Of a stretch of 64,000 nt of DNA, positions 4,516 to 9,900 are shown one piece after another; the first letter of the stretch is position 1; each line of letters starts with the position of its first letter. This DNA is from Candidatus Poribacteria bacterium (GTDB lineage Bacteria; Poribacteria; WGA-4E; WGA-3G), in NCBI GenBank assembly GCA_965220065.1, contig OZ244804.1, forward strand, positions 5,434,346-5,498,345. Direction: 5' to 3'. The notes under the pieces were generated by a model. The model was not told the origin of the DNA and made no database searches. It saw nothing but the letters and a program-made list of their open reading frames with translations. Position numbers and translations under genes: made by a program.

Positions 4516-4737
4516 TTATGAAGTTTTTTGCTGGTGCTTGGCGATGATTTTTCCTAATGCTCTCAAGGCATCGTTAACGGATTTCGCGTCCGGAAACATC
4601 TCGGCTACGTCGTCGTCAAGCCGAACCAAATTTGTTCCTGCGTGGTATCGATCCGCATATTTGCCTCGAACCCCTTTACTGAAATCATATTCATCGAGCA
4701 TGTCTGGATCATGTTGATTGGACGTAGTTTGACTCAT
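4516..4737 (-). CDS. BrnA-like antitoxin family protein; no toxin gene adjacent
   Basis: DEYDFSKGVRGKYA...TNLVRLDDDVAEMFPDAKSVNDALRAL matches the small antitoxin-type family usually found after BrnT toxins (recalled pattern). Confidence 0.7.
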   Translation of the reverse strand: MSQTTSNQHDPDMLDEYDFSKGVRGKYADRYHAGTNLVRLDDDVAEMFPDAKSVNDALRALGKIIAKHQQKTS

Positions 4738-4844
4738 GTTGGAATTCCAATCCCACGTTTTTCACTGTACCTGCCTGTTAGATGCCGAGTTTTTAATTGT
4801 AGCATTACATATTTTATAGGAGCGGATCAGTTCATTGACACTAC

Positions 4845-4942
4845 ATTATAACAAATTCGCTCCTAGAAGTCAAGTTACGGAGTTCGATCGTTCGATCAGA
4901 TAGCGACTTTTCCTTGAATGTCGCTATCAAATGTGCTATAAT
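4845..4942. promoter_or_regulatory. Back-to-back sigma70 promoters with a 9-bp inverted repeat over the + strand -35
   Basis: Minus: TTGACT (4873-4868), 17 bp, TG-n-TATAAT (4850-4845). Plus: TTGAAT (4914-4919), 17 bp, TG-n-TATAAT (4937-4942). Perfect IR GATAGCGAC (4899-4907) / GTCGCTATC (4920-4928). Confidence 0.75.
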
Positions 4943-5002
4943 TTTAAGAAGTAAAATCAATGAAGTCCCTGACTACTCTAAAGTTTATTTTCAGCATTAG
5001 GG

Positions 5003-5216
5003 ATGAACAAAAAATCATATAGCAGATACCGGAAATCAAAACGATGGGCAAACCAAACGCTGAATGATTATGAAGCGGGCAGGCTACAAATGTCGGAAAT
5101 GTGGGAGACACGTTACACAGGTCCATCACGAAACCTATAAACGCGTCGGCAGAGAACGTCTCAGCGACCTAACGGCGGTGTGTGGATGCTGCCATAAACG
5201 GGTTCATGGAAAGTAG
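5003..5216 (+). pseudogene. Small HNH endonuclease, disrupted (+1 frameshift and TGA at 5061); 50-aa core ORF 5064-5216 still open
   Basis: 5003 frame: MNKKSYSRYRKSKRWA. 5064 frame: MIMKRAGYKCRKCGRHVTQVHHETYKRVGRERLSDLTAVCGCCHKRVHGK-stop, with CxxC...VHH.TY...G.E...DL...C..CH...H HNH signature. Confidence 0.8.
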
Positions 5217-5259
5217 CAGCTTCTCTTAACGTTGGAGGATAGTACTCTTATTAAGAACT

Positions 5260-6147
5260 ATGCCAAATAATTCTATCGTAAATTTAGGTGATTTATCGAA
5301 ACCAGCGGATACTTTAATCAAAAAAATATCAAAGGCAGTCGGCGGTATCTTCGCCCCTTCCCAAACCAAGCGAAGGGCCCAAGCAGAAGCAGAGGCAACA
5401 ATAATCAAAGCACATGCCGAGGCAGAAGCATCCAAAATCGAAACCCAAGCCGAGATTGAGCGTGCCCAATTGTGTCAACGAGCGGTGCACCGCTTCATTG
5501 CAGAAGAAACGCAACGTCAGAAAAACATGGAAGACATTACTGCTAAGGCGTTGCTTTATCTGAATGAAGAGGCAGAGCCCGATGGCATGAATAATGACTG
5601 GATTGCAAATTTCTTCGATAAATGTCGAATAGTCTCTGACAGTCAAATGCAAAGTTTATGGTCCCGCATTTTGGCTGGAGAGGCAAACATTCCTGACACC
5701 TACTCAAAACGGACAGTTAATTTCATTTCAGAACTCGACAAGAACGATGCTGAACTGTTTACTAAGTTATGTGGTTTTTGTTGGACGGTTGAAAATTTTA
5801 CGCCGTTAATATTTGATGAAAGCGCGGAAATTTACAAGAGACACGGAATTAACTTTGAGACCTTGAATCATCTTGACAGTATTGGATTTATTAATTTTCA
5901 AAATGTTAACAGTCTCATGTGGGATTTTTCAACCAAGAGTACTGTCGGGCATGCCGTGCATTATTATGGTACCTCGCTTTGCTTGGAGGTACCCGAGTAT
6001 CGTAACAGTGTTGAGGTTGGGAAGGTGCATCTCACAAAAATCGGACAGGAACTTGCGCCAATATGTGGAAGCCAACCTATGGATGGTTTCTATGAGTATG
6101 TGAAGGAGCAATGGAAGGAATATTTGCCTATAGATGCGAAAGATTAA
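5260..6147 (+). CDS. DUF2806 family protein
   Basis: Q.NMEDITAKAL...DWIANFFDKCRIVSDSQMQSLWSRILAGE...YSKRTVNFISELDKNDAELF pattern; AT-rich relative to flanks. Confidence 0.8.
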   Translation: MPNNSIVNLGDLSKPADTLIKKISKAVGGIFAPSQTKRRAQAEAEATIIKAHAEAEASKIETQAEIERAQLCQRAVHRFIAEETQRQKNMEDITAKALLYLNEEAEPDGMNNDWIANFFDKCRIVSDSQMQSLWSRILAGEANIPDTYSKRTVNFISELDKNDAELFTKLCGFCWTVENFTPLIFDESAEIYKRHGINFETLNHLDSIGFINFQNVNSLMWDFSTKSTVGHAVHYYGTSLCLEVPEYRNSVEVGKVHLTKIGQELAPICGSQPMDGFYEYVKEQWKEYLPIDAKD

Positions 6148-6219
6148 TGACGCAGATAATTCTATACACATGCTAAAGTAGTTATCGAGGGTCAGTTATT
6201 AGAAACCGTAGTCTCCTCT

Positions 6220-6242
6220 GTAGGAGCGAGCTGTGCTCGCGA
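6220..6242 (+). repeat. Cognate REP upstream of RAYT
   Basis: GTAG-GAGCGAGCTGTGCTCGCGA: GTAG foot plus imperfect palindrome. Confidence 0.9.
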
Positions 6243-6273
6243 TACCATATATAAAAACTTATAGGAATATGCA

Positions 6274-6747
6274 ATGAAACAAGCACCCAACCGAGGACAC
6301 CGGCAACTCCGAAAAGGCAGAACCTCAATACCCGGTGCCTACTATTACCTCACACTCGCCACACTTAACAAAAAACCACTGCTCGCAACTCCCAAAATCG
6401 CAGACATTATTTTTCAAGCCTTTGACTGGCTCGAAACGAAAGAACGGCTCAGATGGTTTTGTGGGGTTGTGATGCCAGATCATATCCACGCCGTTATCCA
6501 ACTCGGCAGTCAGCAAACATTTTCCAAGCTTATACAATCCTTCAAAAGCCACACAGCGAAACAGGTTAATGCTTGCTTGGGACGTAGCGGTTCGCTTTGG
6601 CAAGCTGCTTACTATGAACATGGTATTCGGCGGGATGAATCATTAAATACCATTATTCAATATTGCTATCAGAACCCAGTGCGGTCAGGATTGGTAAAGG
6701 CTGCGAGGGATTATCCGTTTTGGTGGTGTAAATTTGAGATGGAATGA
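6274..6747 (+). CDS. rayT: REP-associated tyrosine transposase (RAYT, Y1 HUH family)
   Basis: YYLT..T, HUH motif VVMPDHIHAV, FKSHT, LWQ..YYEH.IR, catalytic Y..QNPV..GLV; flanked by inverted REPs. Confidence 0.9.
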   Translation: MKQAPNRGHRQLRKGRTSIPGAYYYLTLATLNKKPLLATPKIADIIFQAFDWLETKERLRWFCGVVMPDHIHAVIQLGSQQTFSKLIQSFKSHTAKQVNACLGRSGSLWQAAYYEHGIRRDESLNTIIQYCYQNPVRSGLVKAARDYPFWWCKFEME

Positions 6748-6775
6748 GGAAGATCGCGAGTAACACAGCAAAAAA

Positions 6776-6903
6776 TCGCGAGCGCAGCTCGCTCCTACAG
6801 AGGAGGTATGTGGTCTACTTTATCGCGAGCACACAGAAATACCCAAGCAAAAACACTCGCTCCTACAGAAGAAGGGGGAATCGCGAGCACAGCTCGCTCC
6901 TAC
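6776..6903 (-). repeat. Cluster of three cognate REPs downstream of RAYT, one with an expanded loop
   Basis: TCGCGAGCGCAGCTCGCTCCTAC 6776-6798; TCGCGAGC-[~25 nt insert]-CTCGCTCCTAC 6823-6866; TCGCGAGCACAGCTCGCTCCTAC 6881-6903. All inverted relative to 6220. Confidence 0.9.
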
Positions 6904-6915
6904 AACAAGTGTTCC

Positions 6916-9900
6916 TTATAGTGCAGGCAAATTTTTGACGATCTCCACCGTCTTCAAACTGACGGTGATAACACGCCCAACCAAATCCACAATATACCGC
7001 GGTTGATCAGCACGGTTCGGGTCATTCACAATTCCGCTCCGTTTGTCCGTCTTGACGCGATACTGATCCACCACCCACTCCAACGCTGAACGGTTGCCGA
7101 GCCGATACTTATAAGCCTCCGCAGGGATACCATCCAGCGTCAGGAACTCGTTGTATTTCAACTGCGTCTTATCTTTGGACAACCGCATCTTCTCAACGCG
7201 CCAATCTATCGGTAGCCCCGGCGTTTCGACGTTTCTTAGTTTATCGTATTTCGGAACGGATTCATAGTTGACGTGGAGGTCTGCTAACTCTGCACCGGCA
7301 TTAGCGAATCCCCAGAAGTCTTCGGCGTAGGGGATATGCGGGAGGTCGCGCTTGAGGTTCATCTCGTATTTCTCACGGTAGACGGGATGGTGCAGGAGAC
7401 CGTAGTTATAGTGGAAGATGTCCCACTTGGTAATGGTGTCGTCGTTGTAGTGGGTTCGGTATTCCGTTAACGCCCAATCGGTGATGTTCTCCTGTCGGTT
7501 GGTGCCGTCCTCATCGTAGGTGTAGAAGGGGAAGGATTGTTGTGGATCGCCATAGAAGTTCACATCGGGAATACATTGATTCATCAACACAGCAAACTCT
7601 TTTCGACCGTAACCCCCAACACAGATCACGCGGTTCTCGTTTTCAGTCTCTGGTATCGGAAAAACAGTGGGGAACACAAAGACACTATGATTCATAATTC
7701 GGTCAAAGAATAGATGTGTCTTTGTAAAGGGGCGGTAGAGAGCATATCGGAGTTTCGCATCTGAAAACTCAGCTATTTTGCCACTCTTAAACTGCCGTTT
7801 TAAAGCAGAACTCCAGCTGATTTTAGTATTGTCATACTCTACGAAATTATCTATATTCACAATTGACTTCTCTGGTGTGACCAGCCACTTTAATACCTGG
7901 GCATTGTAGAATCCTATCGTTTTCTGAACATTTTCAGCAAGAGTATCTTGGTTAAAATTGTAGACCCACGCATCGCGATTTGTACCGACTCCGAGGCTAT
8001 AGGTTTTATAGATAACACCCACCGTTGCACCTTTTATTCCTTTTGCTTCCTTCGTTCCTATCGGAATAAAGGTATCAAACTCGGGGTGGAGTCCTTCGGT
8101 GAGCCATGTATATCGGCCGTCGGGTGTCATCTGCTGCCACTCAATGTTTTGGTAGTGCTCCTTTGAATTGAGGTAATTATATTTTTCTTCTTTGCGCCAA
8201 AATTCGTCAACGCGAGCATAGAAGATTTCGGCGGGTTTTGAATCTGTTCTAACTGTACTTCTCTTGACGAAAAAATTGACGCTTACTCCGACCTGAATCC
8301 CGAAGACATTATGTGTTGTCCCTGACAACTTCGTATTCTGGCGGACATTCCCACCCAGATCCAGAATGTAAATTGCGTCAAAATCCTGCGCGAGGTGTTT
8401 CCGCATTCCATCAAATGTTGTTCTGTCCAGAAAACCGCTGTTTGTCACAAATGCTACAACGCCTTCTTCTCCAATTCGCTTTGATGCCCACAGGATCGCC
8501 TTTACATACGGATCTGAGAGTGATCTTTTGTTCGTCGCCTTTGAGGCACGCGAATATGTTTTTCGCAACAAAGCATCCATCGTCTCATACGTCCGATTTT
8601 TATTATTGTCGTTCTCGTTCACCTGTCCCATGTTATAGGGTGGATTGCCAATAACGACGAACATGTCCGCCGCCTTCTGTCTCTCGACCCGTTCTGTGTT
8701 TTCCTGTGTGAAGAGTTCTCCTTGTTCCTGCTCCATTAACTCAAACGTGTCAGCAAGCGCGATCCCTTCAAACGGCAGATACATCCCCGTGCGTTGGTAG
8801 TACTCCTGTTCGATGTTCAGGCTGGCGATGTAGTAAGGTAGGAGCATCACTTCGTTGCAGTGGAGTTCGTGACGGTATTTTTCCTCTAATGCCGTGCCTC
8901 GGATGTCCCGCATGAGTCGGACGATGAAGTTGCCCGTTCCGACGAACGGATCGATAATATGCACGCCGGTATCCGACAGCGACCGACCGAACTCGGTCTC
9001 CAAGATATGTGCGACGCTGTTGACCATGAAATCGACAATCGGTTGCGGTGTGTAGACGATGCCGTGTGTGTCCGCTACGTCCTCAGAGAATCCCTGAAAG
9101 AATTTTTCATAAAAGGTGTTGAGGAAATGCTGTTTTTGGGAGAAGTCTTTACAGAGCGCGGCGGCTTGCTCAATGGCGACATAGAACCGATCTAACGGTT
9201 TAAGAAACTCCTCGCGACTGAACGCCTCTCGGATGAGTTCATCAACGACATTTTCAATTTCACGTGCGATGATATTTCGGCGGGTGAAAGCGGAGTTGTT
9301 AAAGACGGTACGGAAGATTCGCTCGGTGAGAATATGTTGGATGAGCATCTCTTCGACGGCATCCTGTGAAAGTTCCGGGTTGATGGAGGTGCGGCAGGTA
9401 TCGTAGAAGTCGGTGAACGCCTTTTTGAAGGCTGGATCGGTTTCGTGGCGTTGCTCAATGAGTGCCTTTAGTTTGTTTGCGAGGTCTGGTACGTGTTCTC
9501 TGAAATCGGAAACTGCGGTCTGCCAGTTGCCGAGCGCGGGTGGGACGTAGGCGAACAGGTATTGGAGTGCGGCAATCAGATTGACGGGTTCGGTGATGTC
9601 GAGATCCAGCACCTCCACACCGTTCTGATACAGGATAACGCGTTGTGGGGTTTGGAAGAGAATATTGTCAAATGGGTAACCCGCCTCGCGTTTTTCCTGC
9701 ACCGCTCTGGCAAGGTTGTCGTCTATATCCTTCGCTTCCCAATAGGCGAGCGGGAGTCCGATTTCGTCGATGATTGCGCCATCAATAACGATGCGATTTC
9801 CTTTTGGAGCGCGCATCGGGTATTGTGGGACGAGCGTAGCCTTCACCTGCTTCGCGCAGGCATGCAGGAGGGTTTCAAGCGGTGAGCTGACGGCACCTTC

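Follow-up and report, generated by a model that had tools for sequence, protein, structure and literature searches.

A probable Belisama-type DUF2806 gene behind a disrupted HNH gene in a restriction-linked variable slot of a sponge-symbiont Candidatus Poribacteria genome

Here, a stretch of 64,000 nucleotides from a Candidatus Poribacteria bacterium, a sponge symbiont, was analysed (assembly GCA_965220065.1, contig OZ244804.1, positions 5,434,346 to 5,498,345 of the forward strand; the whole stretch is referred to as the window), with attention to a gene of the DUF2806 family and the remains of a small HNH nuclease gene that immediately precede it. It seems likely that the DUF2806 gene is a stand-alone, Belisama-type defence gene that occupies a variable slot linked to restriction genes, and that the HNH gene is dead and no part of the mechanism. 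From comparison with the characterised relative, the gene is probably an abortive-infection gene; one other member of its family has already been shown to stop phages. A first-pass annotation of this DNA had presented HNH and DUF2806 together as a candidate anti-phage system; an anti-phage role is plausible for DUF2806, but not as one half of a pair with HNH, because in related bacteria the HNH gene marks a slot that holds many different defence-like genes. The principal features are as follows.

4899-4942, forward strand: promoter of the HNH-cargo unit, consensus-like, with TTGAAT at 4914-4919, TG-TATAAT at 4935-4942 and a 17-nucleotide spacer; the coordinates include an inverted repeat
5003-5216, forward strand: HNH pseudogene, derived from a Poribacteria-specific nuclease of 70-72 amino acids, with a frameshift and a TGA; a 50-codon core at 5064-5216 is open
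5260-6147, forward strand: intact DUF2806 (Belisama-like) gene, 295 amino acids, PF10987
6916-9990, reverse strand: single-chain Type ISP/IIG-like restriction-modification gene, 1024 amino acids, convergent with the HNH-cargo unit

The DUF2806 gene and its relationship to Belisama

The protein encoded at 5260-6147 matches PF10987 over positions 1-220 of the 221-position model (E=1.1e-38; 133.7 bits against a cut-off of 24.5), with a start codon and conserved residues that agree with family alignments, and a genome-wide search returned the same single copy. Comparison with the 83%-identical orthologue in L001, a syntenic metagenome contig (L-numbers denote the related loci or contigs that were compared), gave a ratio of non-synonymous to synonymous substitution rates (dN/dS) of 0.23, indicative of purifying selection. 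Sponge metatranscriptomes contributed RNA-derived contigs over 4949-5236 and 5281-5464, where carry-over of DNA is possible; raw Hi-C reads (X21) gave no match to the stretch. An AlphaFold2 model built from a 116-sequence alignment has a predicted local distance difference test score (pLDDT) of 90.1 and a predicted template modelling score of 0.78; an earlier run with a 24-sequence alignment gave a pLDDT of 40.6 and was discarded. The predicted shape comprises a poorly ordered N-terminus, a single helix of about 70 residues (32-100) and a compact alpha/beta C-terminal domain. The protein carries no recognisable enzyme motif, and a search of the PDB with the DUF2806 family profile revealed no solved relative.

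The first-pass annotation described DUF2806 as a family of no known function, a statement that is now outdated, since Belisama, a single-gene DUF2806 system carried by a cassette of the chromosomal integron of V. cholerae N16961, has been tested as an abortive-infection system (Darracq et al., bioRxiv 10.1101/2024.07.02.601686). Belisama provides protection at low multiplicity of infection and gives rise to unrecoverable lysis at high multiplicity, is toxic upon over-expression, and has homologues in 70 genera (10.1101/2024.07.02.601686). The window gene resembles Belisama in several respects: the DUF2806 domain covers most of the protein, the family is spread over many genera by horizontal transfer, the promoter is supplied by the slot, and there is no conserved partner gene, the commonest neighbour family being present at no more than eight of 80 DUF2806 loci examined. 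It differs in belonging to a Poribacteria genome, outside an integron, and in lying behind a dead HNH gene and facing a Type ISP/IIG restriction gene. The nearest Vibrio homologue compared (L050, which is not Belisama itself) is 53% identical to the window protein.

A second comparison concerned Abi-alpha (AbiAlpha in DefenseFinder), a prophage-borne abortive-infection protein of Enterococcus, to which the first-pass annotation had likened the DUF2806 protein. Two close relatives of the window protein, P0053 and P0074, align with nearly the whole of the Abi-alpha model PF14337 (positions 15-196 of 196), with scores of 28.3 and 24.2 bits that fall below the cut-off of 29, and the Belisama paper also states distant homology to Abi-alpha (10.1101/2024.07.02.601686). 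The window protein itself has no match to PF14337 at E<=0.1, and hhalign of the DUF2806 profile against one PF14337-bearing Poribacteria family, gave a probability of 0.9%; that family is narrow and barely exceeds the PF14337 cut-off, which makes the comparison a weak one. Since the PF14337 scores are below cut-off, the window protein is without a match and the hhalign result is not significant, the protein is filed as DUF2806 as opposed to Abi_alpha; a distant superfamily link between the two is plausible from the profile alignments, and to that extent the suggested resemblance survives.

The HNH gene in the window is a pseudogene

The frame that opens with the ATG at 5003 reads MNKKSYSRYRKSKRW, its Trp codon (Trp15) lying at 5045-5047. 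An extra G within the run 5046-5048 shifts the frame by +1 after Trp15, and the frame that follows has a TGA (5061-5063) as codon 20, where relatives have Arg or Gln. Directly after the TGA come ATG (5064), ATT and a further ATG (5070), and the core at 5064-5216 is open for 50 codons up to the TAG at 5214-5216, reading ...KRAGYKCRKCGRHVTQVHHETYKRVGRERLSDLTAVCGCCHKRVHGK. The frame from the family's start codon is thus interrupted, but the core retains the zinc-finger/His-His motif CxxC...HH...CxxCH...H (CRKCG...VHHETY...CGCCHKRVH), the beta-beta-alpha-metal pattern that the Poribacteria HNH shares with IscB, group II intron maturases and phage HNH proteins. It differs from IscB-type HNH domains in that the Poribacteria protein is stand-alone, only 70-72 amino acids in length and very basic, and in that the window copy is disrupted. 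The window core scores 19.3 bits on PF01844, under the Pfam cut-off of 21.4, and has matches to several HNH families of PHROGs (1e-4 to 1e-6). Intact relatives of 71 amino acids pass the PF01844 cut-off (22.1-24.7 bits), and their sequences align to the IscB and group II intron maturase HNH domains.

Contigs of four public runs, from three studies, span 4800-5215, 4800-5144, 4863-5345 and 4992-5453, with 0 differences and 0 gaps; because all four reproduce the HNH region exactly, the frameshift and stop that the first-pass annotation reported are not assembly errors. In genomes of the same genus the region is approximately 80% identical at the nucleotide level, and many of these have an uninterrupted HNH gene of 70-72 amino acids, as for example in L088 (MNKKSYSRYRKSRRWQTKRQTVMKRAGYKC...). 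Twenty-six intact copies gave a median pairwise dN/dS of 0.083, with values of 0.048 for the core and 0.21 for the first 22 codons. Three changes set the window copy apart from the intact ones, namely the inserted G, the stop at codon 20 and a degraded ribosome-binding stretch before 5003. The window copy is a genuine pseudogene, and the gene from which it derives encodes a small nuclease specific to the lineage.

The remnant and the DUF2806 gene lie together behind one strong promoter (4914-4942), as the annotation had it: the gap between the HNH remnant and the DUF2806 ATG at 5260 is 43 nucleotides, and a terminator scan found no terminator-like site between them. The promoter is kept together with the HNH gene in relatives, and a metatranscriptome contig begins at 4949, just downstream of it. 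A perfect 9-bp inverted repeat, GATAGCGAC/GTCGCTATC (4899-4907 and 4920-4928), flanks its -35 element. The unit was also correctly described as AT-rich, with a G+C content of 42.9% compared with 49.2% for the window, which places it in the lowest 3% of windows of equal size.

A variable slot downstream of HNH genes in Poribacteria

About 37 Poribacteria HNH loci were examined. In genomes of the same genus, homology with the window ends just 3' of the HNH stop codon, and one identical HNH protein was found in four contexts, divergence starting about 39 nucleotides past its stop. The cargo gene that follows begins 21-69 nucleotides downstream of the HNH gene and belongs to one of at least eight unrelated types. 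These include a trypsin-like protease fused to TPR repeats (seven loci), a 283-amino acid protein with a weak match to a restriction-endonuclease fold (five loci), FRG-TPR, FRG-DUF2806 or other FRG proteins that match the PADLOC candidate PDC-S15 (four to five loci), subtilases (three loci), PDC-S45-like proteins (two loci) and an Mrr-type Type IV restriction enzyme (one locus). Classic DUF2806 follows the HNH gene in the window, L001 and L130, and as a truncated copy in L119, and approximately nine loci have an HNH gene without any cargo. In metagenomes that hold the window sequence, depth drops two- to three-fold near 5208 and contigs break there, as would be expected of co-existing strains that have the HNH gene in common and differ in cargo. 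The description of the region as a defence-like islet is supported.

Several of the cargo loci merit description in their own right. In L093/L114/L139 (G007; 1773-2975) a 401-amino acid fusion, in which an FRG domain replaces the N-terminal DUF2806 helix, is encoded directly 3' of an intact HNH gene and opposite a Type ISP gene. Genes for proteins of 283-284 amino acids follow the HNH gene in L090/L104, L109, L116 and L111, with a weak Tox-REase-9 match confined to the C-terminal half; this family, similar to restriction endonucleases, is among the commonest slot cargo. Two tandem cargo genes are present behind an intact HNH gene in L140 (G127; 6263-8044), the first of this restriction endonuclease-like type and the second encoding DUF2806. 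The HNH gene of L091/L131/L149 (G004) carries a TnpB/IS605 OrfB-type gene inserted into its 3' end, as well as a -1 frameshift.

Next, the state of the HNH gene was compared with the identity of the cargo. The HNH gene is dead in all three loci in which intact classic DUF2806 lies directly 3', and by a different lesion in each: the insertion and stop in the window, a TGG>TAG change at the Trp codon in L001, and in L130 a 5' deletion together with replacement of a zinc-binding Cys by Arg. In L119 both HNH and DUF2806 are broken, so that classic DUF2806 adjoins HNH in only four of the approximately 37 loci and the HNH gene is damaged in all four. Conversely, among 19 loci whose intact cargo is of another kind, 18-19 retain an intact HNH gene (Fisher p of 6.5e-4 to 2.6e-3, on few loci and uncorrected for shared ancestry). 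The most economical explanation is that HNH becomes dispensable or disadvantageous beside a DUF2806 gene that is sufficient by itself; loss of HNH beside DUF2806 fits a DUF2806 gene that stands alone, and speaks against the two being dedicated partners.

Defence hotspots with conserved flanks are familiar from P2/P4 prophages, core defence hotspots and integron arrays. The Poribacteria slot resembles them in having a fixed flank, comprising the promoter and HNH gene, followed by interchangeable and mostly promoter-less single genes of defence type, and in having cargo that varies at the strain level within one metagenome. It is unlike them in that the anchor is a 71-amino acid HNH gene as opposed to an integrase or phage gene, and in being found so far in Poribacteria only; compared with integron arrays, no attC-like site or recombinase was identified for the slot. 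Whereas the DUF2806 gene itself adds little, as one more probable Belisama-type gene among some 8,600 clusters (8,584 at E<=0.001), the HNH-anchored slot is the more original and more useful outcome. The HNH gene, being nearly invariant in protein sequence, is a simple landmark for a strain-variable defence position in Poribacteria, and since it marks diverse uncharacterised cargo (the 283-amino acid restriction endonuclease-like protein and the FRG-DUF2806 fusions, FRG-TPR and trypsin-TPR proteins), it could guide defence-gene discovery in sponge microbiomes.

DUF2806 genes outside Poribacteria

Eighty loci from other lineages, with homologues 47-61% identical to the window DUF2806 protein, were then inspected; the set includes Entotheonella, Latescibacterota, Acidobacteriota, Chloroflexota, Planctomycetota, Vibrio and two archaea. 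Not one of the 80 has a homologue of the HNH gene, and within 2 kb of DUF2806 no zinc-finger motif of HNH type occurs in any of them. The immediate neighbours of DUF2806 instead include HsdS (seven loci), Fic (six), Type III Mod (four), Type ISP (three), PIN (three) and AbiEii-like AAA_21 (two) proteins; within the loci as a whole HsdM and HsdR are each found in six, and a Type ISP gene lies within 3.5 kb in eight. In total, DUF2806 is in or beside a restriction-modification operon in approximately 20 of the 80 loci, or about a quarter, and these counts indicate that it often travels in or beside such operons. The window gene extends the setting of the family to uncultivated sponge symbionts and reinforces its association with restriction-modification.

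Five of the loci (L005, L008, L012, L018 and L020, from Latescibacterota and Nitrospinota) have the order hsdM - Fic-domain gene - DUF2806 - hsdS - ... - hsdR. The gaps in these loci are 14-98 nucleotides, so a Type I restriction operon here contains two accessory genes, the Fic-domain gene and DUF2806. One example of an abortive-infection or guard gene embedded in a restriction operon is PrrC, of the EcoprrI Type I locus. DUF2806 genes share this kind of placement, being found between or next to the genes hsdM/hsdS/hsdR, Type III mod/res and Type ISP, and the window copy faces a Type ISP/IIG gene. Unlike PrrC, DUF2806 is without an anticodon-nuclease or ATPase domain. Carriage on mobile elements was also observed, in that a temperate Sinorhizobium phage encodes a 39%-identical DUF2806 homologue. 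In E. coli IncX4 plasmids, the mcr-1.1-pap2 cassette is reported to be inserted in a DUF2806-domain gene (PMC8221240), from which it follows that members of the family are also plasmid cargo.

The restriction gene that faces the slot in the window is intact. Its 1024-amino acid product combines in one chain Type_ISP_C (PF18135, E=5.5e-98), ISP_coupler (PF22240) and N6_Mtase (PF02384), and is matched by the PADLOC model REase_MTase_IIG (E=3.7e-242). It covers only positions 734-1638 of the 1646-position Type ISP model; because it has no helicase-like motor such as classical Type ISP enzymes possess, and its short N-terminal region carries a D...EAK motif, the protein resembles a Type IIG enzyme. 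Homologues 69-81% identical to it face the HNH slot in 12 of the 16 fully read loci.

Proposed mechanism and alternative explanations

On the reading favoured here, DUF2806 alone would be the active gene, and infected cells would lyse or die before phage release, as with Belisama. The protein may sense a phage cue and kill by oligomerisation or via a partner. Transcription would start from the promoter at 4914-4942 and pass through the HNH remains. The promoter and the 70-72-amino acid HNH gene form the conserved 5' edge of the slot, the convergent Type ISP/IIG gene usually providing the other edge, and different single defence-type genes are placed between the two in related genomes, DUF2806 being the occupant here. 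The HNH gene has been lost by frameshift and stop in the window, and independently in the other genomes where classic DUF2806 directly follows.

A number of observations weigh against a stand-alone Belisama-type gene. The anti-phage role of the window's clade, though plausible by analogy, derives from one preprint on a Vibrio homologue; Foldseek of the DUF2806 model against the PDB returned nothing at E<=0.001; and PADLOC, in its 2023 models that predate Belisama, has no match for the protein. Genes at the related loci were called as simple longest open reading frames. An intact HNH gene coexists with DUF2806 in second position in L140, which, with few loci available, ties the loss of HNH only to direct adjacency of DUF2806. 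Finally, the HNH core gave a dN/dS of 0.13 against L001, a value based on only nine substitutions, which leaves a small chance of residual function in a restarted 50-amino acid HNH peptide.

The question that the slot raises is whether the tiny HNH protein is a functional partner of the cargo or of the restriction enzyme, or a hotspot flank only. It is possible, at rather long odds, that it is a working partner of one or the other, in which case classic DUF2806 could have intruded and displaced the native partner, with decay of the HNH gene to follow. The strong conservation of HNH (dN/dS of 0.083) would be expected of a working protein, as would the short gaps to cargo that is uniformly defence-effector-like, the adjoining Type ISP gene in 12 of 16 loci, and the decay of HNH both beside broken cargo and beside DUF2806. 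However, some nine loci hold an HNH gene with no cargo, the Type ISP gene of the window is intact despite the dead HNH gene, and the conserved flanks of recombination hotspots are usually bystanders. A related and similarly doubtful proposal is that the promoter and the 71-amino acid HNH gene form a dedicated expression head for interchangeable single-gene defence cassettes. The HNH protein would then be more than a bystander, acting either as the nuclease partner of the cargo or as an enzyme of cassette exchange at its own 3' end, and a self-sufficient DUF2806 gene in first position would render it unnecessary or harmful.

Alternatively, translation could restart at the ATG at 5064 or 5070 to give a shortened HNH protein of 48-50 amino acids, which would act with DUF2806 or with the restriction enzyme. 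The core reading frame is open and under apparent constraint (the value of 0.13 given above), all of its zinc and His ligands are kept, and an ACG>ATG change created a start codon right after the TGA; moreover, five independent lesions (window, L001, L118, L129 and L131) all fall at codons 10-20, upstream of a conserved Met/Leu. Nevertheless, this explanation is improbable. No Shine-Dalgarno-like sequence stands ahead of 5064, and the window no longer has the one that relatives carry (GAGG) before 5003; the N-terminal 22 residues, which align inside the HNH domain of IscB, are under selection in intact copies (dN/dS of 0.21); and L130 and L119 show loss of zinc-binding cysteines, indicating true decay.

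It is less probable still that DUF2806 is a neutral or selfish passenger, or a regulator, that is carried by horizontal transfer and has no role in defence. Such an origin would accord with the lack of an enzyme motif or of a PDB fold match, with a phenotype known for one family member only, and with the extreme mobility of the family across phyla. It sits poorly, however, with purifying selection on the gene, with repeated embedding in restriction operons and beside Fic, PIN and AbiEii-type genes, with the homologue in a temperate phage, and with the published abortive-infection phenotype of a relative.

The dedicated two-gene system of the first-pass annotation, with HNH as nuclease effector, DUF2806 as sensor and the whole a costly module in decay, is very unlikely: the 43-nucleotide gap, shared promoter and lack of an intervening terminator, the recurrence of the pairing in L001, L130 and L119, the FRG-DUF2806 fusion after an intact HNH gene in L093/L114 and the tendency of HNH to be inactivated where the cargo is broken as well (L118, L129 and L119) are outweighed by the 0/80 result outside the lineage, by the same HNH gene preceding proteases, restriction endonuclease-like, Mrr and FRG-TPR genes among its eight or more cargo types, by selection on DUF2806 beside an HNH gene broken in three of three direct pairings, and by Belisama functioning as a single gene.

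Flanking features

The remaining features of the region lie on either side of the HNH-DUF2806 unit.

4516-4737, reverse strand: gene for a small protein of 73 amino acids (open reading frame), divergent from the HNH promoter
4845-4873, reverse strand: promoter-like site of the 73-amino acid gene, TTGACT-17-TATAAT, 11/12, from a promoter scan
6210-6247, no strand assigned: palindromic repeat of REP type, GTAGGAGCGAGC...GCTCGC, lying at the cargo's 3' edge, seen from the sequence and from a jump in depth
6274-6747, forward strand: REP-associated tyrosine transposase (RAYT) gene (NF047646, E=1.3e-38; PF01797)

The flanks are thus only partly as the first-pass annotation described them. The restriction gene is confirmed, but the REP repeat and RAYT gene separate it from DUF2806, and the 'orphan antitoxin', which is the 73-amino acid protein, matches no family in Pfam, NCBIfam, PHROGs, PADLOC or the PDB, so that its assignment to any antitoxin family failed. 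Copies of the 73-amino acid gene that are 82-94% identical adjoin the HNH gene in five of 18 related loci, and the gene is absent from L001. The inverted repeat over the -35 element could serve as an operator for the divergent 73-amino acid protein, which may in this way control the promoter of the HNH-cargo unit.

The REP palindrome at 6210-6247 is also found 3' of DUF2806 in L001 and L130, and belongs with the adjacent RAYT gene. REP hairpins were considered as a constant, integron-like 3' boundary of the cassettes and rejected, since palindromes follow some cargo only and the genomes are REP-rich. Metagenome depth rises 5-15 fold at the palindrome, where many contigs break. Additionally, a low-depth contig (2.4) of run X1 joins 4955 to 6216, omitting the whole HNH-DUF2806 unit; with a 30-nucleotide side its support is weak, and it may represent an empty-slot variant in the population.

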